A stretch of 51,468 nucleotides of DNA. Source: Escherichia phage phiE31-2. A program made the translations under genes and the position numbers. Shown here piece by piece: positions 7,911 to 36,449 of the stretch. The DNA lies in the sequence record PP988008.1. The stretch is one strand, 5' to 3'. A model generated the notes under the pieces. It saw only the letters and a list, made by a program, of their open reading frames with translations, had not been told where the DNA came from and did no database searches. Every line of letters begins with the position of its first letter. The stretch's first letter is position 1.

Positions 7911-7952
7911 CTATACACGATCTTGCGGTGGGCGTTTAGCAAAAAGTGCCAC
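7911..7952 (-). promoter_or_regulatory. conserved-motif promoter-like element (lipoprotein/RBP operon)
   Basis: Minus strand TGGCACTTTTTGCTAAAC - 18 nt - TATAGT, then RBS and ATG of lipoprotein. Confidence 0.5.
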
Positions 7953-8062
7953 TCTGTTCTTTTTGTTCTCCTGCGTTCTCAAATCTGCGGAGGCTTAAAT
8001 TTAGCTCAAAATGTGAGCAACAATAGAGCGATATACATACAGATAAATATATATACATACAT

Positions 8063-8190
8063 ATAAATCAATAAGTTAGTAGTATATATATTTATATTTG
8101 TTCTTTATTGTTATCTATGTTTTGTGTGATTTTGTGTGTCTGGTGATTTTTCTGTGATTATGTATGTGTCAGTGGTTGTGTGTGTCTATA
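8063..8190. repeat. AT-rich conserved core plus GTGAT(T) iteron cluster, copy A
   Basis: ~50-bp core (ATAAATCAATAAGTTAGT...ATTTATATTTGTT) ~85-90% identical by eye to 30350..30399; followed by repeated GTGATTTT/GGTGATTTTT units. Confidence 0.6.
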
Positions 8191-8322
8191 TATCTATATC
8201 CGGCGCAAATTGAGGAGCAAGAGAACAAAAAGACAACAAAGATATTTATCAATCACTTACATGTAAGTTTTGTTATCAAAGATGTCTAGAACGTTGTTAG
8301 AACAGAAAAAACAAAATAACTA

Positions 8323-8350
8323 TTGACTAAACGCATCAAATAGCTACAAT
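8323..8350 (+). promoter_or_regulatory. sigma70-like promoter for recombination operon
   Basis: TTGACT - 16 nt - TACAAT about 30 nt upstream of exonuclease ATG. Confidence 0.55.
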
Positions 8351-8379
8351 GCAGACATACCAACCAATGAGGGCAAATC

Positions 8380-9441
8380 ATGAATAAGTTTATGGCGTAC
8401 ACCAGCGAAGAAATGAGCAACGAGCTTTATCACAATCCAGAAGCGTGGACTGCTGATTATGTTAGCGGTTCAAGCCTGGCAGAGATTTACAGCACATGCC
8501 CGGCAGCGTGGAAGTTCAAGCCGCGTGACGACAAGAGCAAGGCGCTAGTTTTTGGTACGCAGTCGCATACCAATTTTGAAAGCAAGGAGCTTTTCGAAAA
8601 AACCTATCGCCGTGCGCCAGCGCCAGAAGACTTTAAGGATCTGATAACCAGCCAAACGGAGCTTGCTGCAAAGCTAAAATCATTTGGCCTGAAAGGTACA
8701 ACAGGAAAGACTTACCCTGAACTTATAAAAATGTTGGTTGACTGCGGAGAAGACCTTAACGTCATGTGGTTAATCGACATGATCGCAGAAAGTCAAGCCA
8801 GGGCCGATGGGGTTCAGTTAATCGAAGCTAAAGATTACGATGCGTGCGTGGCAATGCGCCAGGTTCTGGAATCAATACCGGAACATAACGCATGTATGAA
8901 TAGCAAGACGGCACAACGTGAATTATCGTTATTCGGTGAAATCAACGGCGTAAAAGTCAAAGTGCGATGCGATCACGTTGACGTAACAAAGAACGTGACA
9001 GCAACTCTTATTGATGGTTACGATGAAAAAGGTCAGCCGATTTGCCGCGATATTATTTATCCAGAAGCTATTGTGATCACTGACTACAAAACAACAATGA
9101 GCGCTAATCCGGTTGAGTTTATGCGCCTGGCTTACAATCACGGCTATTATTTGAAAATGGCGTTGCAATGTGATTTATTCAGAAAAGCGTATCCAGAAGA
9201 AAAGCGACCTATAGTTGTGCGACTGTTAGCGCAAGAGAAGAAAGAGCCTTATTTGCCGTTGGCTTTCCGCATGAACAGCGAGCAATTGAAGATCGGGCGC
9301 ATTCAGTACATGAGCGTAATTAACCAGTTTGCCATGTGCCAGCAACATGACGTTTGGCCTTCGTATTCAAACGGTGAGCCGGAGGTTTGCCTTGATACTC
9401 CTGATTGGGTGCGACGCCAGTTTAAGCAATATCTTATTTAA
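8380..9441 (+). CDS. PD-(D/E)XK-family recombination exonuclease
   Basis: 353 aa; nuclease-like D..(ITDYK) motif; precedes Erf and SSB genes; strong upstream sigma70-like promoter. Confidence 0.65.
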   Translation: MNKFMAYTSEEMSNELYHNPEAWTADYVSGSSLAEIYSTCPAAWKFKPRDDKSKALVFGTQSHTNFESKELFEKTYRRAPAPEDFKDLITSQTELAAKLKSFGLKGTTGKTYPELIKMLVDCGEDLNVMWLIDMIAESQARADGVQLIEAKDYDACVAMRQVLESIPEHNACMNSKTAQRELSLFGEINGVKVKVRCDHVDVTKNVTATLIDGYDEKGQPICRDIIYPEAIVITDYKTTMSANPVEFMRLAYNHGYYLKMALQCDLFRKAYPEEKRPIVVRLLAQEKKEPYLPLAFRMNSEQLKIGRIQYMSVINQFAMCQQHDVWPSYSNGEPEVCLDTPDWVRRQFKQYLI

Positions 9442-9522
9442 ACAGCACAAATAGCTAAACAAATGAAAAATGCGGTGTTATAATTCACCGCATAAGTTAA
9501 CAACAAGCGTAAGGAAATAAAC

Positions 9523-9801
9523 ATGGAAAACAAACAAGTGTCAGAGGTGGCAGTTCATATCAATAATTTTGCAACTGGCATGGCTATGTTGCTTCGTGAC
9601 TTTGTAGCGCCGCTCGATCCAACGGCAGGCGCAGAAGAAATGGAGTACATAAGAAAAGTAATGTATGCAGTAGATAACGTCGTACTTGTTGCAACAATGA
9701 GCGAAGACAACGAGGAAGCAGTCAAGGCGGTAAAAGAAAGTTCTGATCGCATGATGGAAAATCTGATTAAATTACACACCAAAGAAGAAACAAAACATTA
9801 A
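9523..9801 (+). CDS. hypothetical protein
   Basis: 92 aa ORF with AAGGAA RBS between exonuclease and Erf genes. Confidence 0.5.
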   Translation: MENKQVSEVAVHINNFATGMAMLLRDFVAPLDPTAGAEEMEYIRKVMYAVDNVVLVATMSEDNEEAVKAVKESSDRMMENLIKLHTKEETKH

Positions 9802-9846
9802 CAGCAATAAGGCGGCGAAAGCCGCCATTAATTACGGGAATTAATC

Positions 9847-10503: not shown

Positions 10504-10510
10504 TTGACAT

Positions 10511-16007: not shown

Positions 16008-16940
16008 TTAGAGAAGAGATTCAGGTTTGTAAACCTTCCTCTCTATCCCTTGCCTGTAATTATCATTAATCGGCATCATAATTTCAAGACCTCTTTCCTC
16101 TGCGGCAATGATAGCGTCACGATCTGTGCTCTTACAGACAACTCGCATTCTTCTGTTGCCTTTATACCTGTAAGCCACAATCTCAATGTTAGTTGCATCA
16201 AAGCAGGCCCAAACCTCTTGACCAGTTGCAAGATGGATGTGTTGCGCATCAATCCAGTCAACGCAAAGATAGATCGCCTTATCTGTGCTTCCTGTTCTCA
16301 CAATCGACCCGCGCGTGTAGTCCTTTGCGAGAAAAGACTTATTACCTTCTTCATCAATGAAAAGCACATTGCACATTTCATCATCAATTTCATCTGAATG
16401 TACCAGGTAACATGGGAGCGCGTGAATGTATCGACCATCTTTTACGCCGCAATCATAATGACTATCTTCAGGCGGGTATATTCCTTCATATGTGCTTAAC
16501 GGCGTGCGATCAAATTTTAGTGTTTTTGACATAACGCGCTCGCAGCATTCATGGCTTGCCTGTTTCCCAAACGAATAACCAGAATCACGAGATACTCGCT
16601 TATTTGACTTGATCCTATAGTCCTGCGGAACTTTTCCAAGAAAGCGGCCCAAAATATTGATCACTTCGCTGTAAGGTTCTCCGGTTAGCTTCATGATCCA
16701 ACCAATTCCAGTATCATTACCGCACACGTTGCAGATCGCACCGCCATCGCCTTTTTTATCGCCAAGTTTATCAGTCCACCTGAAGCGATCCTTTCCGCCG
16801 CAGTGGGGGCAAGATTGATGCTTGCCGTTAAAAACTTCATTTGGAAGACCGCAAATACTTTGTAGCGCCTCACGCCACAATCCTTGCATATATGGGAGAA
16901 CATCTTCCTTTTGATAAACCATAAAGTTTTCGTTATTCAT
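16008..16940 (-). CDS. DNA primase (zinc-binding CHC2-like plus TOPRIM-like)
   Basis: 310 aa from ATG with GAGGTG RBS; CPHCGG...C..C zinc-binding motif; acidic TOPRIM-like segment. Confidence 0.75.
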   Translation of the reverse strand: MNNENFMVYQKEDVLPYMQGLWREALQSICGLPNEVFNGKHQSCPHCGGKDRFRWTDKLGDKKGDGGAICNVCGNDTGIGWIMKLTGEPYSEVINILGRFLGKVPQDYRIKSNKRVSRDSGYSFGKQASHECCERVMSKTLKFDRTPLSTYEGIYPPEDSHYDCGVKDGRYIHALPCYLVHSDEIDDEMCNVLFIDEEGNKSFLAKDYTRGSIVRTGSTDKAIYLCVDWIDAQHIHLATGQEVWACFDATNIEIVAYRYKGNRRMRVVCKSTDRDAIIAAEERGLEIMMPINDNYRQGIERKVYKPESLL

Positions 16941-16952: not shown

Positions 16953-16988
16953 CAAAAAAGCCTGACAGATGATAACATCATGCCAGGC
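16953..16988 (-). terminator. hairpin with T-run between HTH gene and primase (leftward)
   Basis: GCCTG...CAGGC stem followed by TTTTTTG on minus strand, directly upstream of primase RBS. Confidence 0.4.
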
Positions 16989-16995
16989 ATTGTTT

Positions 16996-17469
16996 TTAGC
17001 AATTAGTGCTTTCAGGTTTATACAGGAATCCGCCAGGTTCATAATCTGACATTCTTACCACTCGCAACATTTCACGCTTATCACATCTCTTTGTGAGCGG
17101 TTTACCATTGGAATCAAATCGCAGATCTGGACGGCAGAATGACGCGCGATAGCCTTGACAACCATATTTCTTGTAATCGTTATGCACCTTTTGAGCGCCA
17201 GCGGCTGAAATCATACCGCGAACACGCCACTGATTTACAGTTTGCTGGCTAACGTTAAGACGTTTTGCCATTGCTGACACACTTCCGTAATACTCAATAA
17301 GGATGTCAAGTCGCGCTTTTAGCCCGGCGCGCACCTCATCTTTTAGAACATAATAACCTGTCGGTCGCTTGCGCTTCTTCTTGTCCTTGCCTCGTCTTGT
17401 TCCGTTATTGCCATTAATTGTGCGCTTGTCAATCTTGCCTGTTGATACTGCGATTCTTTTCTCTTTCAT
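16996..17469 (-). CDS. HTH DNA-binding protein, putative transcriptional regulator
   Basis: 157 aa; basic N-terminus (KDKKKRKR) and helix-turn-helix-like SAMAKRLNVSQQTVNQWRVRG; divergent from helicase gene. Confidence 0.6.
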   Translation of the reverse strand: MKEKRIAVSTGKIDKRTINGNNGTRRGKDKKKRKRPTGYYVLKDEVRAGLKARLDILIEYYGSVSAMAKRLNVSQQTVNQWRVRGMISAAGAQKVHNDYKKYGCQGYRASFCRPDLRFDSNGKPLTKRCDKREMLRVVRMSDYEPGGFLYKPESTNC

Positions 17470-17483
17470 TATTCATTCTCCAA

Positions 17484-17525
17484 TAGCATTTTTTGTTAAA
17501 CGATGATTTAATGATTGTGTATTAT
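17484..17525 (+). promoter_or_regulatory. conserved-motif element in helicase/HTH divergent region
   Basis: TAGCATTTTTTGTTAAAC - 18 nt - TATTAT; on the opposite strand a TTGAGT-16-TATAAT promoter for the HTH gene overlaps. Confidence 0.5.
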
Positions 17526-17558
17526 ACACGCCAAATGGCATTACTCAAAGGTTTTAGA

Positions 17559-19598
17559 ATGATTCCAAACATTGAAAAGCAAATATCAGCACTTGGTGAA
17601 GCGGTAATTAAATCCATTCAGGAGCGATTCACTGTTGGCGAGATTGTGCCTTACCCTTACCAGTGCATTGCATACGCTGAGATCGCAAAGCGTATGAAAA
17701 ATTATGAGCATCCATTCTTTGTTAAAGCGTCCGTATCTGCTGGCAAAACATTGATGTTTGCAATGGTTGCTCACCAGTGCCGGAAAATGGGCTTAAAAAT
17801 GATGGTACTTGCTCGCCAGGCTGAGATTGTGGATCAGGATTCTGAAGAGATAACAAATCTTGGTGTGCCGAACTCCATCTATTGTGCAGGACTGAAGACA
17901 AAAAGCGCATACTTTCCGATCGTTGTTGGTTCTGAGGGAACTGTAGTTAATGGACTTTTTAAAGCGCTTGGCGACTATGTTCCGCACGTTATCGGGATTG
18001 ACGAGTGTCACCAGGTGGATTGGGAAGACCTTGCCGACGCAATAGAGAAAGACGAATCATTTTTACAAATGACTACGAAGAAAGGCGAAAAAGTACCAAA
18101 TCCAGATTATGACATAGCGAGCGATAACGAATGCGAAGAGTTCCTGATTGGTGAGGATGGCTTGCCAATGGAGGGAACAGGTCGCACACAATACACTGTC
18201 ATTATCATGGAAATGATGCGCCGCTGCCGGAAAACATATGGTCATGAACTACGCATATTTGGTATGACTGGTTCTGAGTTTCGCGGCGTAGTCCCGATCC
18301 TGGTAGAAGACAAAAAACAAAAAGGATTTTGGCGTGAACAGGTTACTAATATTGACACCAACTACCTGATCAAATTCGGTTCTGTTGTGCCAACAAATTT
18401 TGGCGACGTTGGCGATCTAGGGTATGACCTTTCAGAGTTTGAGGCATCCAGCGAGGATGGCGTTGCAGACTTTGACGCTAAAACGCTTCGCAGGATGGAA
18501 CAAAAAATTCATGAAGAAGCGACCATGACAAAGAGCATCATGGCGAAAGTTCACGAGATCTGTAAAAACCGCAACGGCGTACTTGTGACATGTGCAGGAG
18601 AAAGGCATTGCAAAGAGGCAGCGGCAGCGTTGCCACTTGGAACTACTTACAGGATCATTACTGGTAAGACTGGCGACAATCAGCGCAAGGAGTGGTTGAG
18701 GGAAGCATACGAAGGGAAGGTAAAATACATCTTCCAGGTTCAGGCGCTAACTACTGGCGTTAACGTGCCGTTTTGGGATACGTCTGTTATTCTGCGTAAG
18801 ATTGGATCGCTAACTTTGCTGATTCAGCTTTTAGGACGAGGAATGCGACTTCTTAAGAAATGGCATAAGGAACAAGGCTTCAAGAAAGATGATCACCTTG
18901 TTATGGATTTTTCAGGAACGATGGACGAGTTAGGTGAGCTTTATTTTGATCCGATACTTGAACAGGCGCAACATCAGAAGCGATTCAGGAACGGTAAAGA
19001 TCCGAAGCCTTGTCCTGTTTGCGGAACTCTTAACAGCTATTACGCTCGTCGTTGTATGCACGTAGACGAAAACGGAAACAGATGTGAGTGGTTCTTTAAA
19101 TTCAGGACATGTGATGATCAGATTGACCCGCGCACTAAAAAGATTATTCAGCGCGGTTGTGGAACGAAAAATGATATTGCGGCCAGGGTATGCAGACATT
19201 GCGACATGTCATTGATTGACCCTAACGAGAAATTAAGCGGAAAGCACTACACAAAAAACGACTGGTTCCAGGTGCAATCTTTCTCGGTTGACATGACGAA
19301 AAACCAGAAAGGGATAATATTTAATTATGAGCTTTCCGATGGCATAGATACTTTCAGAGCGCGGGAAATATTTTTCCCTGAATCAGAAAGCCAGATTTGC
19401 CGCGCAAAATGGAGAAATGTTGCTCTTAAGCACATACCGGATCGCCGTATTGCTGGCATGGTGGCGAGCTATCGTAATGCACGAAAAATAATGCAATATG
19501 TGAATCACATCATGCCTCCATCGCGTGTTACTCACAGAAAGACTAGTAAGGGAGAAGATAATTTGTACAAGAAGGACTTTAATTATGGCAATGACTGA
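17559..19598 (+). CDS. DNA helicase (superfamily 2, DEAD/DEAH-like)
   Basis: Walker A SAGKT, motif II DECH, C-terminal Zn-ribbon-like CxxC pairs; start uncertain (ATG 17559 chosen downstream of promoter-like element, alternatives 17511/17535). Confidence 0.8.
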   Translation: MIPNIEKQISALGEAVIKSIQERFTVGEIVPYPYQCIAYAEIAKRMKNYEHPFFVKASVSAGKTLMFAMVAHQCRKMGLKMMVLARQAEIVDQDSEEITNLGVPNSIYCAGLKTKSAYFPIVVGSEGTVVNGLFKALGDYVPHVIGIDECHQVDWEDLADAIEKDESFLQMTTKKGEKVPNPDYDIASDNECEEFLIGEDGLPMEGTGRTQYTVIIMEMMRRCRKTYGHELRIFGMTGSEFRGVVPILVEDKKQKGFWREQVTNIDTNYLIKFGSVVPTNFGDVGDLGYDLSEFEASSEDGVADFDAKTLRRMEQKIHEEATMTKSIMAKVHEICKNRNGVLVTCAGERHCKEAAAALPLGTTYRIITGKTGDNQRKEWLREAYEGKVKYIFQVQALTTGVNVPFWDTSVILRKIGSLTLLIQLLGRGMRLLKKWHKEQGFKKDDHLVMDFSGTMDELGELYFDPILEQAQHQKRFRNGKDPKPCPVCGTLNSYYARRCMHVDENGNRCEWFFKFRTCDDQIDPRTKKIIQRGCGTKNDIAARVCRHCDMSLIDPNEKLSGKHYTKNDWFQVQSFSVDMTKNQKGIIFNYELSDGIDTFRAREIFFPESESQICRAKWRNVALKHIPDRRIAGMVASYRNARKIMQYVNHIMPPSRVTHRKTSKGEDNLYKKDFNYGND

Positions 19599-26381: not shown

Positions 26382-26409
26382 TGATGATAACTCCTTTTTG
26401 ATGCGGCAA

Positions 26410-26452: not shown

Positions 26453-26670
26453 TTGATCCGCTCTATGCTAACTAAGATTTTTTCTGGTTCCTTTGCACTA
26501 TGGCAATGCGCGGTTACAGAATCAACAAAATCAAAGTAAAGTGATTTGTGATATGAGAATCCAATCAGCCACCCAACCATCGTTTTCTTTATTGGCCTGA
26601 CTATATCGCCAGGCTTAAAGGTTTTTGTTGCCGAATGAGTCACCTTATAGCGATATTCAGCCTTGATCAC
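26449..26670 (-). CDS. hypothetical protein
   Basis: 73 aa ORF with GTG start overlapping upstream stop. Confidence 0.4.
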   Translation of the reverse strand: MIKAEYRYKVTHSATKTFKPGDIVRPIKKTMVGWLIGFSYHKSLYFDFVDSVTAHCHSAKEPEKILVSIERIK

Positions 26671-27053
26671 TTATACATAGCCTCAAACAAATGACAGCCA
26701 CCAGCGGAAAATCCAACTTCTTCGCGGTATAGCGTCCAGCGGTCGCCAGCTTCATCAAACACATAACCAGCAACAGCGCCAAGCGCGCGGCCTTGCTCAA
26801 TCTGGTAGCGCTTTCCTTCTTTGAAATGCTTTTTACACGGGATCTTGTGATCTACAAAGGTGCATTTAATTGTTTTTGTCTTGATATGACGATAGTCAGA
26901 CTCAACAGCGTTTTGCCACTTGCTACCCTTTGTAATGCTCTTTACCTGGAATTGTTCCAACTCGATCACATCATCGCTACCAGCAATTTTTTCGTATACA
27001 GCTTTATAACGACCGTTCATCAAAACGTTGGTTTTATTGCAGATAACTTTCAT
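26667..27053 (-). CDS. hypothetical protein
   Basis: 128 aa with AAGGAG RBS downstream of promoter-like motif. Confidence 0.5.
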   Translation of the reverse strand: MKVICNKTNVLMNGRYKAVYEKIAGSDDVIELEQFQVKSITKGSKWQNAVESDYRHIKTKTIKCTFVDHKIPCKKHFKEGKRYQIEQGRALGAVAGYVFDEAGDRWTLYREEVGFSAGGCHLFEAMYK

Positions 27054-27084
27054 CGTTTATTTCTCCTTTCGTTTCGGTGAAGTG

Positions 27085-27127
27085 ATTATGCCAGGCTTTT
27101 ACACCTGGCTTTTAACAAAAAGTGCTA
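27085..27127 (-). promoter_or_regulatory. conserved-motif promoter-like element
   Basis: Minus strand TAGCACTTTTTGTTAAAAG - 18 nt (GCCAGG/CCTGGC hairpin) - CATAAT. Confidence 0.55.
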
Positions 27128-27835
27128 TTTTGCGTTAGCTTCAAAGACGGCGCGAGCAAAACCTCGCGGAGTGAGGGAGCGGATCATCTTTGTGCGAGAT
27201 GATTTTCCGCCAGTTTTGGCCCAACCAGGATTATCCTTGTCATCCTCTTTAGGAAGGATTGTTGCGCGCGGAGGAATAACAAATCCGTTTCCAGTCCAAA
27301 GGCATGTTTTCTTAAAGTACCGATCGCGCGCAGGAATAATATCAGGAAAGTCGGGATGTTTATCATCTTCCGGCAGATAGCCAGCATAATCGCACGGATG
27401 GAACGTATAATCAGGCTTGCGCCATAACGTTGACAGCTTTCCTACAGGATTCTCTATCATGTACGGAACACCGAAATAATCAGCGATATGCGCCGCAATT
27501 TTGCAAGTGTCGGCGGCTTCATCCTGGAAAGCTGGATTCTCAAGGCGTTTTTTGGTCCAATGGCGAGATCCGCTATTCGCAAGGTCAGTGCACGGCGGAA
27601 ATGCCATAATGAAATCAGGCTTGCCCCAATTTTCAAGTTTTGCGGTATATTTGAATAGCTCATCAATCCACACATTAACGTAAAAAATATTATCATGGAT
27701 TATGCGCACTGATTGGTAATCTCCGTGATCGGCATCATCGTAATTAAAGCAAATGCATTTATATCCAGCATCAGCCCAATCTTTAACGGCCTTACCAGAT
27801 CCATCAAACAAAGAGAAAATTAAACCTTTATACAT
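27125..27835 (-). CDS. compact DNA (cytosine-5)-methyltransferase-like protein
   Basis: 236 aa; C5-MTase-like motifs in canonical order and spacing: I FDGSG (aa 10-14), IV FPPCT (79-83), VI ENP (128-130), VIII PARDR (168-172), IX-like RSLTPRGFARA (219-229); only ~45 aa where a target-recognition domain would be; no motif X. Confidence 0.55.
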   Translation of the reverse strand: MYKGLIFSLFDGSGKAVKDWADAGYKCICFNYDDADHGDYQSVRIIHDNIFYVNVWIDELFKYTAKLENWGKPDFIMAFPPCTDLANSGSRHWTKKRLENPAFQDEAADTCKIAAHIADYFGVPYMIENPVGKLSTLWRKPDYTFHPCDYAGYLPEDDKHPDFPDIIPARDRYFKKTCLWTGNGFVIPPRATILPKEDDKDNPGWAKTGGKSSRTKMIRSLTPRGFARAVFEANAK

Positions 27836-28226: not shown

Positions 28227-28454
28227 TCATACAGCTTTCCAGCTTTCAATAAACATGCTGTTTTCTTCCAGCAATTTAATCAATTCTTCGCGTGTATATT
28301 TGCGGATTTTACTACCTGGATGTGAGCCAACAACAAACACACCTTTACCACTCGTGATGGTTAACTGGTTTATTCCGCAAGATTTATCCATCTTAATGGC
28401 GACGCGGTGATGTGCATCAACAGTGTGCATGATGTTAGTGACTTTAGCTTTCAT
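28227..28454 (-). CDS. hypothetical protein
   Basis: 75 aa from ATG with GAGGA RBS downstream of promoter-like motif. Confidence 0.45.
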   Translation of the reverse strand: MKAKVTNIMHTVDAHHRVAIKMDKSCGINQLTITSGKGVFVVGSHPGSKIRKYTREELIKLLEENSMFIESWKAV

Positions 28455-28484
28455 TATGCAATCCTCATTATATTTGGCGTGGTA

Positions 28485-28526
28485 ACTATACCAGGTTTGA
28501 GAAATATTGTTTAGCAATTCGTGCTA
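28485..28526 (-). promoter_or_regulatory. conserved-motif promoter-like element (variant)
   Basis: Minus strand TAGCACGAATTGCTAAAC - ~18 nt - TATAGT. Confidence 0.45.
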
Positions 28527-28628
28527 TTAGTTGAAATAGCTATGGCGCTTTGCTCGCTTGCCGTCTCCACCATAATGATCATTAGAAACGGCAATCATCC
28601 AGGCATTATGGAATATTATTAGCTTCAT

Positions 28629-28910
28629 CTAATTAATGCCAACAACGTTAAAACTTACAGATTTTGTTGCGCTAAATACATACGCTTCAACAGCTTCACC
28701 AAATACACGAATTTTTCCATAGCCGTACTGCGCATTCATATTGCGCCAAACCGTTCTGTTAGAACAGAACGCGTTACCAGTCTTGATAAGATTATCCATC
28801 TCTTTTCTTAGGTCATGATAATCAAGCCAGAATCTATAAGCGCGTTGTTTAATGAGTTGCGCCTTGATGGTTTCGGCTGAGTTTTTAAAATCGCTGTTTT
28901 TGTAGGCCAT
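28629..28910 (-). CDS. hypothetical protein
   Basis: 93 aa; TAATG overlap with upstream gene. Confidence 0.5.
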   Translation of the reverse strand: MAYKNSDFKNSAETIKAQLIKQRAYRFWLDYHDLRKEMDNLIKTGNAFCSNRTVWRNMNAQYGYGKIRVFGEAVEAYVFSATKSVSFNVVGIN

Positions 28911-29104
28911 TACACAACCTCCATAAAAGTATTGAATCCACGCAGTTTGAAAGCATTGCCATGTTTAACAACGTTCCATGTCAGGCCGGAGTGATACGCA
29001 ACCATATCCTCAAGATCAATTGTGATGATAGCTCCTTTCTTAAAGATTCCTTTCTCGTGAGTGGCGTCACGCTGTACAACTTTAACGTCAACCTGATTTT
29101 CCAT
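28910..29104 (-). CDS. hypothetical protein
   Basis: 64 aa with GAGGA RBS downstream of promoter-like motif. Confidence 0.5.
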   Translation of the reverse strand: MENQVDVKVVQRDATHEKGIFKKGAIITIDLEDMVAYHSGLTWNVVKHGNAFKLRGFNTFMEVV

Positions 29105-29135
29105 TTTTAAATCCTCGTTCGTTGTCGATGCGCAT

Positions 29136-29178
29136 AATATACCAATCAGAGGCGCATCGGTTTTAACAAAAAGTGCTA
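29136..29178 (-). promoter_or_regulatory. conserved-motif promoter-like element
   Basis: Minus strand TAGCACTTTTTGTTAAAAC - 18 nt - TATATT, the hexamer sitting in the loop of a GATGCGC/GCGCATC hairpin. Confidence 0.5.
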
Positions 29179-29179
29179 T

Positions 29180-29459: not shown

Positions 29460-29705
29460 TCATTGTTGATCGTGTTTAACGGCCATCAGAACATCACAGG
29501 ACTCGTTAATGAATTTTGCCATGCGCTTATCATCACCAACAGGGATTAGCGCATTACACTCGCGTTTGCTACTGAATACCGTCACTTTATGAAACGATGC
29601 GAACGGCATCGACGGGAACTCGACTGTTTGCGTCAAGATCCGCAATCCCATCTTTTTGGCCCTTACCTGGGCCTCGGCAAGTTCAAAATCAACTTCACTA
29701 ATCAT
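29460..29705 (-). CDS. hypothetical protein
   Basis: 81 aa; ATGA overlap with upstream gene. Confidence 0.5.
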   Translation of the reverse strand: MISEVDFELAEAQVRAKKMGLRILTQTVEFPSMPFASFHKVTVFSSKRECNALIPVGDDKRMAKFINESCDVLMAVKHDQQ

Positions 29706-29974
29706 TTCTTGATCTCCTCAGCAATAAACTTCAGGACTTTGCGCAAAAACACTTCATTATTGATGGTCGCTGGCAATTCCTCTTTCACTTCTTGCGGCAG
29801 GTAAACGTTGCCATGCCAGGTTAAGCAATCGTAGTTGATACGATAAGAGCAAAGCCACTCGCAATCGTTATCCGCTTCCCAAATGCAGAGTTGCAGAACA
29901 TCGCCGAAGTCTTCAACAGTCAGGTCCAGACCATGACGCTTGGCGAAATTGAAAGTGGTTTTGCTGATGTTCAT
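29702..29974 (-). CDS. hypothetical protein
   Basis: 90 aa from ATG with CAGGAGA RBS downstream of promoter-like motif. Confidence 0.5.
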   Translation of the reverse strand: MNISKTTFNFAKRHGLDLTVEDFGDVLQLCIWEADNDCEWLCSYRINYDCLTWHGNVYLPQEVKEELPATINNEVFLRKVLKFIAEEIKK

Positions 29975-30012
29975 TTGCTTTCTCCTGATGGGTATCTCGT
30001 TTCGATGAGATA

Positions 30013-30055
30013 AATATACCAGGTTATTCCGATCGTGTTTTAACAAAAAGTGCTA
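30013..30055 (-). promoter_or_regulatory. conserved-motif promoter-like element
   Basis: Minus strand TAGCACTTTTTGTTAAAAC - 18 nt - TATATT upstream of 29702..29974. Confidence 0.55.
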
Positions 30056-30269
30056 TTTGCTGACTGGTTATTATTCCATCTATTCCATTAATCAGGAATA
30101 ACAGGAATAAATCATTCGCGATCACCTGGATTGTGAGACTTTGAGTTTGATCAATTTTAATCAGTTGATTAACTTTTTGTGTGGAGGGGATAGAGAAACG
30201 CGGTCCTCTTGCGTCCTTTCCGGCAATCCTGGCGCGCGCATCTGTTATTTCTGTTCCCTGTGTTATCAC
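30024..30269 (-). CDS. possible first leftward early protein
   Basis: GTG start 7 nt after GGAGG; ~81 aa; 3' end reads through the promoter-like motif of the next gene. Confidence 0.3.
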   Translation of the reverse strand: MITQGTEITDARARIAGKDARGPRFSIPSTQKVNQLIKIDQTQSLTIQVIANDLFLLFLINGIDGIITSQQIALFVKTRSE

Positions 30270-30710: not shown

Positions 30711-31181
30711 ATGAATGAAGAAAATGTTAGTTCTATGTCGCGTAGTGAGTTCTGCGATATGCTTCGCGACTTGGGCGCGGCAATTGGTAGCGGCGAGCGT
30801 AACAATGTATTCATGCCAGCACTTTTCTTGTGCGCTAACGTGGAAAACGGCGACGCAATTACAGCCTCGTACATGCGCCAGGTGGTCAACCGTGTTCCAG
30901 AAGTAAAGCAAAAAGGCGTGATCAGCATTAAGCGAAAGGTGACTGATGAGGGTGATGGCTTTGTGTTTACGCTCACTGAAGCCAAAAGCAAGCCTCGCGT
31001 TCTGACTGGTGAAGATATAGCGAAACTTGAAATCAAGTGGCGAGCAAAGTTTATCGCTCAACTTCTGAAAACTCAGCCGAGAATCAGCGACCTGGAAGGC
31101 GAGCGCCTGGAGGGTGCAGCAATCGCACTTGAGCGAATGAATGAAATGCTTAGCGAGATGGTGAAGATGGGGGATGAATAA
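30711..31181 (+). CDS. hypothetical early protein
   Basis: 156 aa with AAAGGAG RBS; first rightward gene after AT-rich control region. Confidence 0.55.
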   Translation: MNEENVSSMSRSEFCDMLRDLGAAIGSGERNNVFMPALFLCANVENGDAITASYMRQVVNRVPEVKQKGVISIKRKVTDEGDGFVFTLTEAKSKPRVLTGEDIAKLEIKWRAKFIAQLLKTQPRISDLEGERLEGAAIALERMNEMLSEMVKMGDE

Positions 31182-31441
31182 TGAATAAGGCATTAATTGG
31201 AGTTTTGATTGCAATTGCTACCCTGACCGGATGCGAAAAGGCATCGGAATCAACAGTTGTCGTAGGAGTGGAGTCAGATTTTAAAGTCGGTCGCCTGTTT
31301 ACTGTTGATGGATGCACTGCGTACCGATTCTATGACAACGGTCGAGCAATCTATTACACCAATTGTAATGGCGCAACGGATAGCACATACCGCAGCGGCA
31401 AAAACGTAATGCACCAGCAAGTCACAACAGATATGAAATAG
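31181..31441 (+). CDS. early lipoprotein
   Basis: 86 aa; signal peptide with lipobox LTGC; TAATG overlap with upstream gene. Confidence 0.65.
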   Translation: MNKALIGVLIAIATLTGCEKASESTVVVGVESDFKVGRLFTVDGCTAYRFYDNGRAIYYTNCNGATDSTYRSGKNVMHQQVTTDMK

Positions 31442-31481
31442 CACTTTTTGTTAAAACGCCAGGTGCAAATCCTGGCATAAT
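31439..31481 (+). promoter_or_regulatory. conserved-motif promoter-like element
   Basis: TAGCACTTTTTGTTAAAAC - 18 nt (GCCAGG/CCTGGC) - CATAAT; TAG is stop of lipoprotein gene. Confidence 0.55.
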
Positions 31482-31513
31482 AGCCTCATCGAAACGAGAT
31501 TGAGGAAAACAAA

Positions 31514-31699
31514 ATGGCACGTCGCATCACCAAAGACCTTAAAGTCCTGAACAAAGAAAACGTAGTTAAAATCCTGGTTATCTGGGGCTACAACGAAGAA
31601 ACAGCAAAGCAGAAGGTAGAGGCAGGTTATGACCTGGCTGTAAAAGCAATGCCAAACGACGACGCCAAAGGCATTGCAAACTATGTAGCTTTCTTTTAA
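31514..31699 (+). CDS. hypothetical protein
   Basis: 61 aa with GAGGAAAA RBS downstream of promoter-like motif. Confidence 0.5.
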   Translation: MARRITKDLKVLNKENVVKILVIWGYNEETAKQKVEAGYDLAVKAMPNDDAKGIANYVAFF

Positions 31700-31900: not shown

Positions 31901-31901
31901 A

Positions 31902-31944
31902 TAGCACTTTTTGTTAAAACTCAAAAACGATAACCAGGCATAAT
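31902..31944 (+). promoter_or_regulatory. conserved-motif promoter-like element
   Basis: Same 19-mer - 18 nt - CATAAT, followed by GGGCG/CGCCC hairpin in the leader. Confidence 0.55.
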
Positions 31945-31998
31945 AAATCACATAGGGCGGCACGGCGTCGCCCACAAAACCAATCAGGAGAAAGCACC

Positions 31999-32892
31999 AT
32001 GTTAAAACTTGCTGACATTAAATTCCCGATCACCTTCGAATCTCGCGGAATTGGTCATTACACGTTCGCAGATAAGAACACTTGTTATAAGTTTTGGTCG
32101 CATAGCGACAAGCCAGAGCTATCAACTATGGAAATTGATCACTTCATTGATGCGCATAATAGCCTTTATGAGAAAACGAAGGACTACGGTTACGCAATGC
32201 CAGGCTACACTTGTTTGCACTACAAACCATATAAAGGCCAAGTGTTACCAGTGCGCTCAACTGAGCGATCAGAGATTAATACGGTCGAGATGAAAACTTG
32301 CGACTATAAAAAGTTATGGTGCTTAAACGTTGACAATATCAAGTATCCGATCACGTTCTACACGGTTGGTAATTCAACGATTCGCTTCACATCGCGCGAC
32401 AATGGCGTTTATAGTGATGGTACGAAATCAGAGTTGAAAGTTGATTTCTTTGTTAATGCTCATAACAAATTCAATCCGCACAATGAAAAAGATAAGGTGT
32501 ACTACGTGGAAGATATTACGAAACACTTGTTTGGAGAAACTCCATTCGGCGGCGGGAAGACGTCAATTCAGCAAATCATTGGCGAAGAGATCCATAAGGC
32601 GGCTACCAAAATGAAAGCGCCTGGAGGCTGGCGTATTGACAAGAGCGCCTTTGCCTATCAAGAAATCGTAACGCAGGGCGCTATTGAAGACATGCCGCTT
32701 GGCGCTTCAATCATCGGCATCAGAGACAATAACGGCTACTGGCATGATGTTTCATTCCCTGTCAAGCGGATCGAGTTGCACGAAGACCTGATTTGCATCC
32801 TGGCGCATCATGGCAGCTATAAGGACAAGCCATTCGCCGCAGAGCTTAACATCAAGCGCGGAACGATGGTTAAGTGGAAGGTGAAAGTGTAA
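31999..32892 (+). CDS. hypothetical protein with internal duplication
   Basis: 297 aa; two repeated segments (IKFPITF... and IKYPITF...); CAGGAGA RBS. Confidence 0.55.
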   Translation: MLKLADIKFPITFESRGIGHYTFADKNTCYKFWSHSDKPELSTMEIDHFIDAHNSLYEKTKDYGYAMPGYTCLHYKPYKGQVLPVRSTERSEINTVEMKTCDYKKLWCLNVDNIKYPITFYTVGNSTIRFTSRDNGVYSDGTKSELKVDFFVNAHNKFNPHNEKDKVYYVEDITKHLFGETPFGGGKTSIQQIIGEEIHKAATKMKAPGGWRIDKSAFAYQEIVTQGAIEDMPLGASIIGIRDNNGYWHDVSFPVKRIELHEDLICILAHHGSYKDKPFAAELNIKRGTMVKWKVKV

Positions 32893-32893
32893 A

Positions 32894-32935
32894 TAGCACG
32901 AATTGTTAAAACTCAAATGTGGGGCCAGGTATAAT
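32894..32935 (+). promoter_or_regulatory. conserved-motif promoter-like element (variant)
   Basis: TAGCACGAATTGTTAAAAC - 17 nt - TATAAT. Confidence 0.5.
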
Positions 32936-32965
32936 GGCCTCACTTTCAACGAAGGGGATAAAACG

Positions 32966-33196
32966 ATGTACATTAACAAGAAGATGAGATGCGTTTCCGT
33001 TAATTATGGTTGTGCTGGCATGTTCAAGCCTGGCGAAATCTATACGGCGCAAAAACTGAAATCATCAACCGGATCCTTTTACGTAAGCAACAGTAAAGGG
33101 CATCGCATGTTCCTGAACGGTGGCGAAGGCACTAAGGTTATGGCGCACGCTATGGTGATTGCTGAATTTGAGGAAGTGAAGGATGGAGACAAATAA
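32966..33196 (+). CDS. hypothetical protein
   Basis: 76 aa from ATG after GGGGA RBS downstream of promoter-like motif. Confidence 0.5.
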   Translation: MYINKKMRCVSVNYGCAGMFKPGEIYTAQKLKSSTGSFYVSNSKGHRMFLNGGEGTKVMAHAMVIAEFEEVKDGDK

Positions 33197-33955: not shown

Positions 33956-34113
33956 CCTGGTTACTTTTAATCTTTGTCACAAGTTACAACTCCGCCGCTA
34001 TTGAATCGCAAGAGTTCTACGGAGAATCAAGATGCCAGGAAGCACGAAAACAAGTTGTTCTCCACATGTCAGATAGCGGGAAAGATGTAACAGCGTTATG
34101 CGTTCGTAAGTAG
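33952..34113 (+). CDS. possible small membrane protein
   Basis: 53-aa ORF; ATG overlaps upstream stop (ATGA); hydrophobic N-terminus; stop TAG embedded in conserved motif. Confidence 0.35.
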   Translation: MTWLLLIFVTSYNSAAIESQEFYGESRCQEARKQVVLHMSDSGKDVTALCVRK

Positions 34114-34153
34114 CACTTTTTGCAAAAACACATTATCGGGCTTGCGGTATAGT
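34111..34153 (+). promoter_or_regulatory. conserved-motif promoter-like element (variant)
   Basis: TAGCACTTTTTGCAAAAAC - 18 nt - TATAGT. Confidence 0.5.
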
Positions 34154-34184
34154 AAGCCCATCGACAACAAACGAGGATTAAATC

Positions 34185-34445
34185 ATGGCTAACAAGATCG
34201 AGTTTTTTAAAGCGGTAGACAAGATTGACGGCGCGCCAAGTTTCTTTGCTATCCAGTCAATTGACGGTGAGGATATGGCATACAACGTTATCAGAGAAAA
34301 GAATCACAGCGTAAACGAGCTTATCATGCTTGTGGTTAAGTTCGGTAAATGTGGGTGGCTGGATTCTGGAGTAGAGCCGCGCCGCCGCGACATGGTAGAT
34401 CCTGTTCTGCTTTACACGCTAGTAATTGAGAAAGATAATAGTTGA
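34185..34445 (+). CDS. hypothetical protein
   Basis: 86 aa with GAGGA RBS downstream of promoter-like motif. Confidence 0.5.
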   Translation: MANKIEFFKAVDKIDGAPSFFAIQSIDGEDMAYNVIREKNHSVNELIMLVVKFGKCGWLDSGVEPRRRDMVDPVLLYTLVIEKDNS

Positions 34446-34473: not shown

Positions 34474-35064
34474 ATGAAACGAGACATTATCATCCTTAAC
34501 GGACCGCCAGGAGTTGGCAAAGATACGCTTGCCGCATACTTAACGGGCCATCGTTACGCAGCGGTTAAAGCGTCGTTTAAACAGCCTATGTTCGATATTG
34601 CATTCTCCATGCTTGGCGTTTACAGATATGACGAGTTCATTGATCTGTATAACGACCGCGAGCAGAAAGAAAAGCCTCAAGCAATCTTGCAAGGTAAGTC
34701 TCCGCGACAATTCATGATCTGGATTAGTGAAGAAGTCATGAAGCCAGCTTTTGGCGAGCAATATTTTGGAAATCGCATGGTTGAGCAAGTACACGAGATG
34801 TACAGGGATTTAGCTGTTGTAATTAGTGATGGCGGATTCCCTGAAGAAATAAAGCCTCTCGTTAAGGCAGGCCATGAAGTTCACATTTGCCGACTGCATC
34901 GCGAAGGTTTCACGTTTGATGGAGATTCGAGAAACTATATTGACCTGAGCGGATACCATCACCGAGTCAAGCATTACGACTTCACAATGACTGATGGCGA
35001 TCCAGAAAAGACTGTTGACGAGATCATCAAAACGGTCCAGTGGAAACACATTAAGATCAAATAG
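34474..35064 (+). CDS. P-loop nucleotide kinase (T4 gp1-like dNMP kinase)
   Basis: Walker A LNGPPGVGKDT near N-terminus; ~196 aa; AAGGAGA RBS. Confidence 0.65.
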   Translation: MKRDIIILNGPPGVGKDTLAAYLTGHRYAAVKASFKQPMFDIAFSMLGVYRYDEFIDLYNDREQKEKPQAILQGKSPRQFMIWISEEVMKPAFGEQYFGNRMVEQVHEMYRDLAVVISDGGFPEEIKPLVKAGHEVHICRLHREGFTFDGDSRNYIDLSGYHHRVKHYDFTMTDGDPEKTVDEIIKTVQWKHIKIK

Positions 35065-35104
35065 CACGAATTGCTAAAAGAGGGGCGCAATGCCTCGCTA
35101 TAAT
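35062..35104 (+). promoter_or_regulatory. conserved-motif promoter-like element (variant)
   Basis: TAGCACGAATTGCTAAAAG - 18 nt - TATAAT. Confidence 0.5.
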
Positions 35105-35135
35105 GCAAACACCAATCAACGAGAGGGCTTGGAAC

Positions 35136-35537
35136 ATGTTAGAACTTAAAGACATTCGCGTTGGAACAAAATTTCGCGTAACCTGGGCAGATGAATATTG
35201 CGGCGTTAGCAAGGGCCAGGTTGTTACTGTGGATAGTATTTATCGCGGATGCAGCAAAGACTTTCGCCGCCCACGCATCAAGAATGGCTATATCATTACT
35301 CGCCGTTTTGGCTTTGATCATTATTGCGTAGTGTCAACTCAAGGCGCTTTAATTGAGCTTAAGCGAATAAGCGATCATCGCGGCTGTCATGTTAAGACAA
35401 TGAAGACACCATTTCAGCGAGCGCGATACGATGCGCGACGGATGCGCCGACTTGCTCGAAATGCGATCAAGTTCAAAAAGCCTGGTGGTAACTTTTACCG
35501 AATGTACAAAGGGATTGCGCGAAATGCTGGAAAATAA
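35136..35537 (+). CDS. hypothetical basic protein
   Basis: 133 aa from ATG after GAGAGGG RBS; Arg/Lys-rich C-terminus. Confidence 0.5.
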   Translation: MLELKDIRVGTKFRVTWADEYCGVSKGQVVTVDSIYRGCSKDFRRPRIKNGYIITRRFGFDHYCVVSTQGALIELKRISDHRGCHVKTMKTPFQRARYDARRMRRLARNAIKFKKPGGNFYRMYKGIARNAGK

Positions 35538-35655
35538 CAACAACGCAACCAATCCAAAGCCGCCATTTGATTTTCATGAAATCATGATTGTGTTATTCTT
35601 GATTCTCTTAGTTGTTTATTCAGTGAGGGCCGCAATATGGTTTTTAATGCATTAA
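35524..35655 (+). CDS. possible small membrane peptide
   Basis: 43-aa ORF with one TM helix (IMIVLFLILLVVYSV); overlaps both neighbours. Confidence 0.3.
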   Translation: MLENNNNATNPKPPFDFHEIMIVLFLILLVVYSVRAAIWFLMH

Positions 35656-35900
35656 AACGAATCTTTAAACCTGAATACCGGATCGTTGCTTGCACAGAAT
35701 GCAAGATTTATTACCTGCAACGCCGCCGCGTTATTGGTGGGGATTGGGAATATCTGACGGATGATGCTTTCGGCTTTTGGGCTATGGAGTTTAATAGTTA
35801 CAGTGAAGCGCGCGAATACGCTAAAAAGTTGCACAAGTTCCGACCTTACAAGCTGCGTTTGCTGGTTGTCAAAAAATGCGATGTGTGGGATCACGTATGA
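35637..35900 (+). CDS. hypothetical protein
   Basis: 87 aa ORF. Confidence 0.5.
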   Translation: MVFNALKRIFKPEYRIVACTECKIYYLQRRRVIGGDWEYLTDDAFGFWAMEFNSYSEAREYAKKLHKFRPYKLRLLVVKKCDVWDHV

Positions 35901-36076
35901 AAAGAGTAATTATCATTTTTATTGCCGTTATCGCTGGTTGTTACCTGGCTTATAATTATAGCGGTATTGTTGAGTCAATCGGCGGGTTGATTATCTTCAT
36001 GGCTGGTGGATATGCTGGCTATTGTGATGGATTCGAAAACGGAAAGCGTTACATGCTGACTGGAAAAAAGAAGTAA
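35897..36076 (+). CDS. small membrane protein
   Basis: 59 aa, two hydrophobic helices; ATGA overlap with upstream gene. Confidence 0.45.
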   Translation: MKRVIIIFIAVIAGCYLAYNYSGIVESIGGLIIFMAGGYAGYCDGFENGKRYMLTGKKK

Positions 36077-36118
36077 TGTTAACCGCGCCGCTTCGGTGGC
36101 GCTAAAAGGAGGAAACAA

Positions 36119-36406
36119 ATGGCTAAAAGCAATCGCAAAATGTTGATTAACGCATTCGAAAAGGCAGCGCGTGAGCGTGGTTGGAATGACTCATTCCACA
36201 CAGCAAACTGTATCCGCCGTTACGGATTCAAGAATTGCCGATCATGGGCGCGTGAAATGGCTTCATGGTATGATCTTGATGCGCATTACCTTGATATGGA
36301 TTGCGCCCTGGTTGAAATGATTGAGCAGGCAGCATTAGAGGATCGACCATTAACGCAATCTGATTTTGACGATTTTGTGCGCGATGAAATTTATTATATG
36401 AGCTAA
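36119..36406 (+). CDS. hypothetical protein
   Basis: 95 aa with AAAGGAGG RBS. Confidence 0.5.
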   Translation: MAKSNRKMLINAFEKAARERGWNDSFHTANCIRRYGFKNCRSWAREMASWYDLDAHYLDMDCALVEMIEQAALEDRPLTQSDFDDFVRDEIYYMS

Positions 36407-36449
36407 TAGCACTTTTTGTTAAAACTTCCGCGAGGGCATTTGTTAAAGT
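36407..36449 (+). promoter_or_regulatory. conserved-motif promoter-like element
   Basis: TAGCACTTTTTGTTAAAAC - 18 nt - TAAAGT. Confidence 0.45.

Follow-up and report, generated by a model that had tools for sequence, protein, structure and literature searches.

Repeats before the early genes of the T1-like phage phiE31-2 resemble class II marbox promoters of the host

In enterobacteria, the four AraC-family activators MarA, SoxS, Rob and RamA recognize motifs that are nearly indistinguishable, and their class II promoters carry a forward-oriented marbox that overlaps the -35 region, clusters near -41 and comes without a recognizable -35 hexamer. On micF, RamA sits at ~-41 on 5'-CACT-7X-AAA, read along the direction of transcription, and in the cryo-electron microscopy (cryo-EM) structure of Rob, micF and RNA polymerase a single Rob monomer lies on a 20-bp robbox whose A site is GCAC and whose B site, CAAA, overlaps the -35. 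In this complex Rob blocks sigma70 region 4 from the -35, touches the alpha C-terminal domain and reads G-47, A-45, G-38, T-37 and the A:T pairs at -35 and -34, and the authors of the structure liken it to a co-sigma, as in MotA-type sigma appropriation. Here we compare these promoters with a 20-mer that recurs along the genome of Escherichia phage phiE31-2 (sequence record PP988008.1). The stretch analyzed, called the window below, is 51,468 bp long and constitutes a complete T1-like genome (Drexlerviridae, Tempevirinae, Hanrivervirus), with 95% identity across most of its length to Escherichia phages KarlJaspers and herni and Shigella phage pSf-1. Its annotation holds no gene for an RNA polymerase or a sigma factor, and the authors of the TLS re-annotation (2024) likewise reported that phage TLS encodes neither.

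The repeat itself is already known. The TLS re-annotation described a 21-nt direct repeat, aaATAGCACnnnTTGnTAAAA, that was also seen in T1, Rtp and Rogue1; its function was listed as an open question, with a stoperator, an enhancer site or an UP element as speculations, and only three sigma70-like promoters were found. The phiE31-2 repeat is the same element, as judged from its consensus, the T/G/A subclasses of its central triplet, its orientation and its distance of ~76 nt to the start codon. The TLS paper does not tie the repeat to a -10 element at 18 nt or to the marbox, and our full-text literature searches, made with the motif sequence and with 'marbox' combined with phage or bacteriophage, retrieved no earlier link between marbox and phage, most subscription journals being outside their coverage. 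What we propose here is that the repeat belongs to a known promoter class, in an unexpected setting.

The repeat and its match to the host marbox

A reading of the window made from its letters and open reading frames (ORFs) alone, hereafter the sequence-only reading, had listed 16 copies of a 19-bp motif, each in the orientation of the downstream gene and at a fixed distance from a TATAAT-like hexamer. Searching both strands for the 19-mer TAGCACTTTTTGYTAAAAC with at most 3 mismatches, we obtained 16 matches, as against 0.04 expected from shuffled sequences. The 16 listed copies are real: 15 coordinates were recovered directly, and the one at 28509-28526 was confirmed as a copy of the GAA subclass (ATAGCACGAATTGCTAAACA, 28508-28527(-)), which departs from the TTT consensus at 6 positions and so lies outside the 19-mer search. 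Five copies beyond that list were located at 9442-9461(+), 16993-17012(-), 40620-40639(+), 44875-44894(-) and 48634-48653(-). All gene-proximal copies share one layout, namely (a)aATAGCACnnnTTGyTAAAAC, 17 to 18 nt of variable and mostly GC-rich sequence, (tG)g-YAtaaT, ~5 nt, C-A-TCGAAACGA, GAGG and ATG. The gap between the end of the 20-mer and the hexamer is indeed 17 to 18 nt in every gene-proximal copy of the window, and the orientation with the downstream gene holds for all copies except two in the late region. When ORF ends were compared, the stop codon of the upstream gene, which had been described as embedded in or abutting most copies, was found so placed in at least 11 of them, either as the TAG inside aTAGcac or as an abutting TAA.

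Scanning IMG/VR with the TLS consensus gave 120 stretches, nearly all of them T1-like contigs of 40 to 52 kb, and from these, the window and KarlJaspers we took 420 unique motif instances; a non-redundant set comprised 284 correctly spaced cassettes, A-11 and T-7 being required at selection. Subclasses by central triplet (positions 8 to 10) among the 420 instances include TTT (192), GAA (129), TAA (36) and AAA (13), the first three of which occur in the window, and all subclasses retain W-W at positions 9 and 10. The marbox consensus of the Grainger laboratory, 5'-gcannwwntgnnaaa-3', was matched perfectly by 367 of the 420 instances, and none of the 420 departs from it at more than one position. 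Because the instances had been gathered with a phage-derived pattern, the positions that this pattern left as N were used as an independent test, and these free positions also follow the consensus, with W-W at positions 9 and 10 in 279 of the 284 cassettes and Y at position 14 in 271. A 20-mer marbox consensus, reportedly that of Martin et al. 1999, reads AYnGCACnnWnnRYYAAAYn and was matched with at most one mismatch in 348 of the 420.

In the reverse test, cassettes were gathered by the host consensus alone together with TAnnnT at the micF distance. They had A1 in 92%, Y2 in 95%, C7 in 97%, Y14 in 98% and Y15 in 97% of cases, and the sole deviating position was 19, which is A in the phage motif versus Y in the 20-mer consensus. 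The host-only pattern GCANNWWNTGNNAAA-N20-TANNNT had 9 matches in the window, where 0.01 were expected, and a relaxed version (17 to 19 nt, YAnnnT) had 18 in the window, 17 in KarlJaspers, 15 in T1 and 14 in Klebsiella phage KP36; an unrelated Aeromonas phage, which is not T1-like and served as negative control, had none. All 18 gene-proximal copies face forward: read toward the -10 and the gene, each has its GCAC on the promoter-distal side and its AAA on the promoter-proximal one. As for host sites, the marRAB marbox (reverse strand ATGCCACGTTTTGCTAAATC) has 16 of 20 bases in common with the phage consensus; as regards other class II sites of E. coli, the fumC marbox was located, with an ambiguous -10, and the inaA marbox was not recovered in E. 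coli at the thresholds used. Judged by its letters, the 20-mer ATAGCACnnnTTGyTAAAAC fits both marbox consensi and is a near-perfect predicted site for host MarA, SoxS or Rob, placed and oriented as in class II promoters. The sequence-only reading had suggested a phage-specific promoter class. The promoter class stands, as the motif lies within a cassette of gap, -10, ribosome-binding site and ATG before most early and replication genes, but the match to the host marbox leaves it not phage-specific.

Downstream of the motif, the hexamer starts exactly 18 nt past the 20-mer in 79% of the 420 instances. Its positions in the 284 cassettes are T-12 (77%), A-11 (100%), T-10 (83%) and T-7 (100%), A-11 and T-7 being preselected; G-14 (86%) and T-15 (46%) flank it, and the start region has C-1 (73%) and A+1 (86%), the latter being base seven counted from the end of the hexamer. 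The -10 and the start site have the textbook arrangement of sigma70 promoters, and the extended -10 is partial. Numbered from the predicted transcription start, as throughout, the 20-mer spans -50..-31 and the -35 window reads AAAACn. The sequence-only reading had seen no likeness to TTGACA at this place, and we agree: the embedded TTGyTA is separated from the -10 by 22 nt, too far for the 16- to 19-nt spacer of canonical sigma70 promoters, and was rejected as a -35 element. A scan of the window for consensus -35/-10 pairs yielded 27 canonical promoters, against 41 in shuffled sequences, and did not call the cassettes; marbox promoters that lack a -35 would explain why prediction tools find almost no sigma70 promoters in T1-like genomes.

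The micF promoter of E. coli K-12 (NC_000913.3) reads ACAGCACTGAATGTCAAAAC, 18 nt, TAGAAT, 7 nt and +1, and thus has the same 20-mer frame, 18-nt gap and AAAAC end as the phage cassettes. Five of the six Rob-contacted positions are invariant in the phage motif (G4, A6, G13, A16 and A17), and position 14 is T or C. Since a consensus match of ~25 bits is here combined with micF-like position, orientation and 18-nt spacing, we consider coincidence very unlikely.

The same promoters might be imagined to work free of any activator, as extended -10 promoters of the sigma70 holoenzyme in which the motif is an UP-like or DNA-bending element for the alpha C-terminal domains. The good -10 with its G-14 and T-15 and the T and A tracts within the motif would suit this arrangement, a possibility also raised in the TLS paper, but on balance we find it improbable. 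G4, C5, C7 and G13 are near-invariant (97 to 100%), which an A/T-rich UP element does not need. The UP element consensus reportedly lies at -59..-38 (Estrem et al. 1998). The A/T tracts of the phage motif, however, are at -43..-32 and not at -40 to -60, where the Rob structure paper locates UP elements, and that paper also describes how, in the Rob, SoxS and MarA complexes, the activator occupies the DNA-binding determinant of the alpha C-terminal domain.

Candidate ligands of the motif

With the consensus match, the geometry, the orientation, the conservation pattern, the lack of a -35 and the link between hairpins and upstream genes (see below) directly established, the mechanism that we favor, with moderate confidence, is class II activation by host MarA, SoxS or Rob, overlaid with a layer of terminator-like hairpins. 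Each copy would supply the upstream half of a 'class II marbox' sigma70 promoter, its 20-mer at -50..-31 being a high-quality site for a monomeric activator of the AraC family (MarA, SoxS or Rob, or RamA in Klebsiella and Salmonella). One bound activator would substitute for recognition of the -35, touching sigma70 region 4 and an alpha C-terminal domain, and would guide the RNA polymerase of the host to the -10, tGnTAtaaT, that lies 18 nt farther downstream; transcription would start at the conserved C-1/A+1 and yield mRNAs with an A-rich leader, AUCGAAACGA..GAGG..AUG. A stress-response factor of the host would in this way drive ~18 transcription units of the phage, for early functions, replication and modification, with Rob, which is constitutively abundant, as the likeliest default and MarA and SoxS taking part under stress.

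Conservation in related phages, on which the sequence-only reading had made its proposal depend, was seen in pattern scans: the cassettes are essentially alike in T1 (Tunavirinae, ~20 copies) and in KP36 (Webervirus, ~17 copies), the large terminases of which are ~61-65% identical to that of the window. A motif that stays unchanged across subfamilies with terminases so diverged is most simply read as having a conserved host ligand, for which Rob would be the natural choice and RamA would be available in Klebsiella and Salmonella.

No MarA or SoxS homologue was found in the six-frame translation of the window (phmmer, best E 0.48), the MarA and SoxS probes having been validated as HTH_18/HTH_AraC, and no AraC-type domain was found in the 28 ORFs, a subset, that were scanned against Pfam. 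On these negatives, a phage-encoded MarA-like protein was rejected. The helix-turn-helix (HTH) protein at 16996..17469(-), which had been put forward as a possible regulator binding the motif, is an unlikely ligand: it is Cro/YdaS-like by Pfam, and the motif is asymmetric and matches the monomeric site of an AraC-type protein with two HTHs. Cro-type regulators are expected to bind palindromes as dimers. The same observations bear on the idea that the repeats are operators of a Cro-like regulator, or sites for a repressor or a roadblock, comparable to the 'stoperators' of mycobacteriophage L5, which shut the early genes off. That the sites lie between genes and are oriented with transcription, as the TLS authors noted, and that a Cro/YdaS-like HTH regulator is conserved beside one cassette would agree with this idea. 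A fixed 18-nt distance to a -10 with C-1/A+1 is, however, a property of a promoter and not of a roadblock; the site is asymmetric, in contrast to the palindromes of Cro-type dimers, and the only HTH regulator seen is Cro-like. As the marbox match would also be left unexplained, we give shut-off sites very little credence.

A somewhat greater, though still small, chance attaches to a phage-encoded activator or co-sigma-like factor, comparable to T4 MotA, whose specificity coincides with that of the marbox; the cassettes would then be 'middle' promoters that follow an immediate-early protein. The phage motif is over-conserved relative to what the host consensus demands, at A3 (98%), T11 (99%) and A19, which makes another or an additional ligand possible and counts against the host factors, although A3, A19 and C20 are common to micF and the phage motif and soften this objection. 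Many small ORFs are of unknown function, and a strong canonical sigma70 promoter, TTGACA-17-AATAAT at 30646(+), could give an immediate-early start. A candidate protein is at hand in the 372-aa product of 21604..22722, with its weak N-terminal HTH and the sigma70 region 4-like annotation of its homologue in the KP36 record. Yet the ~25-bit match to the host consensus at the micF position, orientation and spacing would hardly be coincidental, and no AraC-type domain was detected in the six-frame phmmer search or the 28 ORFs scanned against Pfam. The motif is also constant across subfamilies despite strong protein divergence, and the cassettes precede the helicase, primase and methylase genes and the first genes of units, with nothing obvious left for first expression. 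We note that the 372-aa protein (21604-22722(+)) is conserved, is annotated as a phosphoesterase/DNA repair exonuclease (the HTH being HTH_28, E 0.003) and was the only other DNA-binding candidate seen.

Other promoter elements were tried and rejected. Sigma54 promoters have TGGCAC-N5-TTGC, with a strict GG-N10-GC and a start ~12 nt downstream; TAGCAC-N3-TTGy is 2 nt too short, mostly has AG/GT instead of GG/GC and is followed 18 nt on by a sigma70 -10. The T4 MotA box is centered near -30 and needs the phage proteins MotA and AsiA; TTTGyTAAA resembles its sequence, TTTGCTTTA, but is off in position by ~8-10 bp, and no motA or asiA homologue was found among the 28 ORFs scanned, which are a subset of all. 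The consensi of sigma32, sigma28 and sigmaS misfit in their spacings, as judged by eye.

Several further points weigh against activation by the host factors. From the sequence we infer activator binding, dependence of the promoters on the activator and a choice among three or four paralogues, and the transcription starts are likewise predictions. Unstressed cells contain little MarA or SoxS, and most of the Rob in standard media is sequestered; T1-like phages nonetheless grow well on K-12 in broth, for which either a small active pool of Rob would suffice or the promoters would have substantial basal activity through G-14/TGn. A Klebsiella preprint that applied randomly barcoded transposon sequencing (RB-TnSeq) to two Drexlerviridae reported no hits in rob, ramA, marA or soxS, where redundancy of the paralogues could mask a need for them when genes are knocked out singly. 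The specificity may also be that of a phage protein with an unrelated fold, which sequence searches would miss. Lastly, two copies of the repeat run antisense to late genes, and two marbox-like sites that do not have class II geometry lie directly against late start codons or terminators.

Cassettes of the window, spacer hairpins and late-region copies

The cassettes and the late-region copies are collected in Table 1.

Table 1. Repeat copies of the phiE31-2 window with their promoter elements and downstream genes; the 20-mer 'consensus' is that of the phage marbox.
Span	Strand	20-mer	Gap (nt)	-10 hexamer	Hairpin, start and leader	Context and downstream gene
7903..7952	-	GTGGCACTTTTTGCTAAACG, 7933-7952	17	TATAGT 7910-7915	no strong hairpin; predicted +1 7903	first of leftward unit; lipoprotein-like gene 7608..7877 (Pfam LPAM_1)
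9442..9491	+	ACAGCACAAATAGCTAAACA, 0 mismatches to 20-mer consensus	17	TATAAT 9479-9484	-10 bracketed by 8-bp hairpin; predicted +1 9491	not in sequence-only list; 9523..9801, between recE-like and erf-like genes
16962..17012	-	AAAGCACTAATTGCTAAAAA, 16993-17012	18	TATCAT 16969-16974	GCCTGGCATGATG..CATCTGTCAGGC then TTTTTT, terminator-like, -10 in loop	not in sequence-only list; 20-mer overlaps stop codon of Cro-like regulator gene; primase gene 16008..16940
17483..17532	+	ATAGCATTTTTTGTTAAACG	17, AT-rich	TATTAT 17520-17525	no GC hairpin	first of rightward unit; helicase gene 17559..19598
20001..20051	+	ATAGCACTTTTTGTTAAAAC	18	CATAAT 20039-20044	GGCGCG..GCGCC in gap	upstream VRR-NUC gene ends at TAG in motif; Dam-like methyltransferase gene 20079..20780
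21021..21071	+	consensus		CATAAT 21059-21064	GCCCGGC..GTCGGGC, ends at -12; TATTTC after hexamer (terminator-like by scan)	21097..21276
24235..24285	-	consensus		TATATT 24242-24247	CCCGAT..ATCGGG; predicted +1 24235	23987..24223
26402..26452	-	ATAGCATTTTTTGTTAAATG		TATTAT 26409-26414	-10 bracketed by GGTGCGG..GCCGCATC (-18 kcal/mol)	second helicase gene 24798..26381
27078..27128	-	ATAGCACTTTTTGTTAAAAG		CATAAT 27085-27090	GCCAGGT..GCCTGGC	after Dcm-like methylase gene; 26667..27053
28478..28527	-	ATAGCACGAATTGCTAAACA (GAA class)	17	TGG-TATAGT 28485-28490		28227..28454
29129..29179	-	consensus		TATATT 29136-29141	-10 bracketed by 8-bp inverted repeat CGATGCGC..GCGCATCG	28910..29104
30006..30056	-	consensus		TGG-TATATT 30013-30018	no strong hairpin; leader CATCGAAACGAG	first of leftward unit; 29702..29974
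31438..31488	+	consensus		CATAAT 31476-31481	GCCAGG..CCTGGC; leader CATCGAAACGAG	31514..31699
31901..31951	+	consensus		CATAAT 31939-31944	none in spacer; GGGCG..CGCCC in leader	31999..32892
32893..32942	+	ATAGCACGAATTGTTAAAAC (GAA class)	17	TATAAT 32930-32935	-10 bracketed by GTGGGGCC..GGCCTCAC	32966..33196
34110..34160	+	GTAGCACTTTTTGCAAAAAC		TATAGT 34148-34153	-10 bracketed by GGGCTTGC..GTAAGCCC	34185..34445
35061..35111	+	ATAGCACGAATTGCTAAAAG (GAA class)		TATAAT 35099-35104		after P-loop NTPase gene; 35136..35537
36406..36456	+	consensus		TAAAGT 36444-36449	-10 bracketed by GAGGGCATTTG..GTGTCCTC	36482..36694
40620..40680	+	ATAGCACGAATCGACAAACC (degenerate, marbox-like)		none at class II distance	canonical intrinsic terminator follows: AAGGCTGG-aaaat-CCAGCCTT-TTTTT (AAGGCTGGaaaatCCAGCCTT + TTTTT)	between large terminase and portal genes
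44844..44894	-	ATAGCATTTTTTGTTAAACG		TATGCG (poor)		antisense to late genes, just upstream of major capsid gene
48603..48653	-	ATAGCACTTTTTGTTAAAAG		TAGCTT at 18 nt		antisense to late genes

The inverted repeats that the sequence-only reading had described in the GC-rich gaps, differing from copy to copy, are statistically real. The region -31..-2 folds with a mean of -7.9 kcal/mol, against -3.8 kcal/mol in shuffles, and 210 of the 284 non-redundant cassettes contain a perfect stem of at least 5 bp, where shuffles give 93.5 +/- 5.8. Stems spanning both halves were counted in 197 cassettes versus 77.7 +/- 6.3 in half-swapped chimeras that keep column composition; as chimeras that mix halves lose the stems, the two halves covary. 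The stems occur in two registers, either inside the spacer and ending at -12/-13 or bracketing the -10, with covarying pairs from -24:-1 to -19:-6.

Hairpins are absent or weak in cassettes that start a unit or stand alone (7933-, 17483+, 30037-, 44875- and 48634-). By our own reading of the ORF and cassette tables, hairpins of -8 kcal/mol or lower are found in the window in 13 of the 14 cassettes directly after a co-directional gene and in 0 of the 6 others, and in the large set strong hairpins accompany 179 of 219 cassettes with an adjacent upstream ORF versus 2 of 9 without one (Fisher p = 2.8e-4). Because the hairpins track an upstream co-directional gene, we read them as 3'-end structures of the upstream RNA, probably leaky terminators or stabilizers that overlie the next promoter, in line with the 'transcripton' view put forward for T1. 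Several spacer hairpins of T1 and KP36 are annotated as rho-independent terminators. Clear T tracts are present at 16962-17012 and 40620-40680, and weak ones at 21041-59 and 24248-64. After most of the hairpins around the -10 comes ATCGAAAC in place of a U tract, and these hairpins would at best be pause sites or structures that stabilize 3' ends. A role of the hairpin as a promoter element is disfavored, as unit-starting cassettes lack it and the micF-type design does not include it. In addition, a strong 9-bp hairpin, AAAGGAGGCttaacGCCTCCTTT, with flanking A and T tracts lies at 23961-23983, exactly at the convergent junction of the rightward early unit of 17.5-24 kb and the leftward one of 24-30 kb, and is probably a bidirectional terminator.

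The ~75 bp of near-identical sequence that flank many small ORFs could also be seen as recombination modules, similar to the promoter-early stem-loops (PeSLs) of T4, for the shuffling of small early genes, with the promoter role secondary. Of the breakpoints of homology between genomes, 13% are no more than 25 nt away from a cassette, compared with 7% for random positions. This enrichment is weak, about two-fold, and the variable spacer breaks the homology; moreover, shuffling is compatible with the promoter model and leaves the marbox match unexplained, so that we think it most improbable that recombination is the primary function.

Beyond the cassettes, canonical sigma70 promoters in the window are few and are placed at unit starts. 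One, at 30646-30674(+), matches in 11 of 12 positions and lies upstream of the DUF7174 gene 30711..31181, and another, TTGAGT-16-TATAAT at 17548-17521(-), is directed into the gene of the Cro-like regulator, divergently from the marbox promoter of the helicase gene. The transcribed leader of the cassettes is conserved from +1 to ~+25 (for example, at 31488-31513), with A+1 and TCGAAACGA, A-rich and G/U-poor sequence and then GAGG, and this conservation reaches T1 and KP36. It suggests selection on the 5' untranslated region, perhaps for an unstructured translation enhancer, for stability or for promoter escape. No Rfam family was found in the window, and the leader matches none. We also noticed ~20 unannotated 'Campylobacter phage' GenBank records of ~50 kb (e.g., MG065636, MG065649 and MG065657) with 92-93% identity to most of the early region; by sequence these look like T1-like enterobacterial phages, which makes the host label doubtful.

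The degenerate copy at 40620..40680 looks like a cassette with its promoter half lost or replaced, and is either a relic or put to a different use. The two antisense marboxes are present in T1 (L124) in the same places and orientation, at 15067-15086(-) and 18831-18850(-). That at 48634-48653(-) sits between the terminator of the major tail gene (GGGGCG..CGCCCC) and the gene for the tape-measure chaperone, and is aimed into the terminator hairpin. The antisense copies could give rise to short antisense RNA, to transcriptional interference or to a roadblock. MarA-family proteins repress at some sites, and occupancy of these odd late-region copies could have a negative effect. Marbox-like sequences were further seen close to late start codons: ATAGCACAAAAGGTGAAAAA, at 3082-3101(+) of the window, stops ~3 nt short of the J-like tail-tip gene's start codon, its T1 (L124) counterpart, ATAGCACAAAAAGGTAAACA at 25021-25040(+), does likewise, and a third, at 8362-8381(+) of T1 (L124), ends ~15 nt before the small terminase start. 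As they have no -10 at class II distance, the tail-tip and small-terminase sites cannot act like the early cassettes.

Consequences and comparison with known systems

We raise as a tentative proposal, one that may well prove too strong, that the T1-like phages (Drexlerviridae) use Rob, or induced MarA, SoxS or RamA, as an obligatory co-sigma for nearly the whole early program. If this is so, a virulent phage family would have wired most of its early promoters to the activators of multiple antibiotic resistance and oxidative stress; phage success would be linked to gut signals and mar-type resistance states, and the efficiency of infection would be tied to bile salts, fatty acids, oxidative stress and mar-type resistance mutations. 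Promoters that are free of the need for a -35 could stay active during a shutdown of ordinary sigma70 promoters by phage or host, and ~18 high-affinity sites per replicating genome would titrate the regulators off the host resistance regulon. These consequences are relevant to phage therapy with Drexlerviridae (of E. coli, Klebsiella, Shigella and Salmonella) and to the control of T1 contamination. The marbox reading also makes the published open question on the T1-like repeats experimentally tractable, and the cassettes would offer compact activator-responsive promoter/terminator parts for engineering.

Several known systems resemble the cassettes in part. Intrinsic terminators that overlap promoters are like those spacer hairpins after which T-rich sequence follows, several in number, and differ from most of the bracketing ones, which are without a U tract. 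T4 PeSL cassettes have in common with the phage cassettes a repeated intergenic early promoter and a stem-loop around small early ORFs of unknown function. PeSLs are ordinary sigma70 early promoters and proposed recombination substrates. T4 middle promoters resemble the phage cassettes in having a conserved box instead of the -35, in retaining a good -10 and, on the mechanism that we favor, in displacing sigma region 4, but the box of the phage cassettes is centered near -41 and matches the site of a host factor.

The class II marbox promoters, represented by micF, share with the phage cassettes an asymmetric 20-bp site with a GCAC A site and a (Y)AAA B site, its forward orientation, its position at -50..-31 and the lack of a usable -35. 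The phage cassettes differ from micF in the extra invariance at positions 3 and 11, in the GC-rich hairpin over the spacer and -10 and in their common A-rich leader. They differ from host marboxes in general in that these are degenerate, whereas a virulent phage here carries ~18-20 near-identical, near-consensus copies in a genome of 51 kb.

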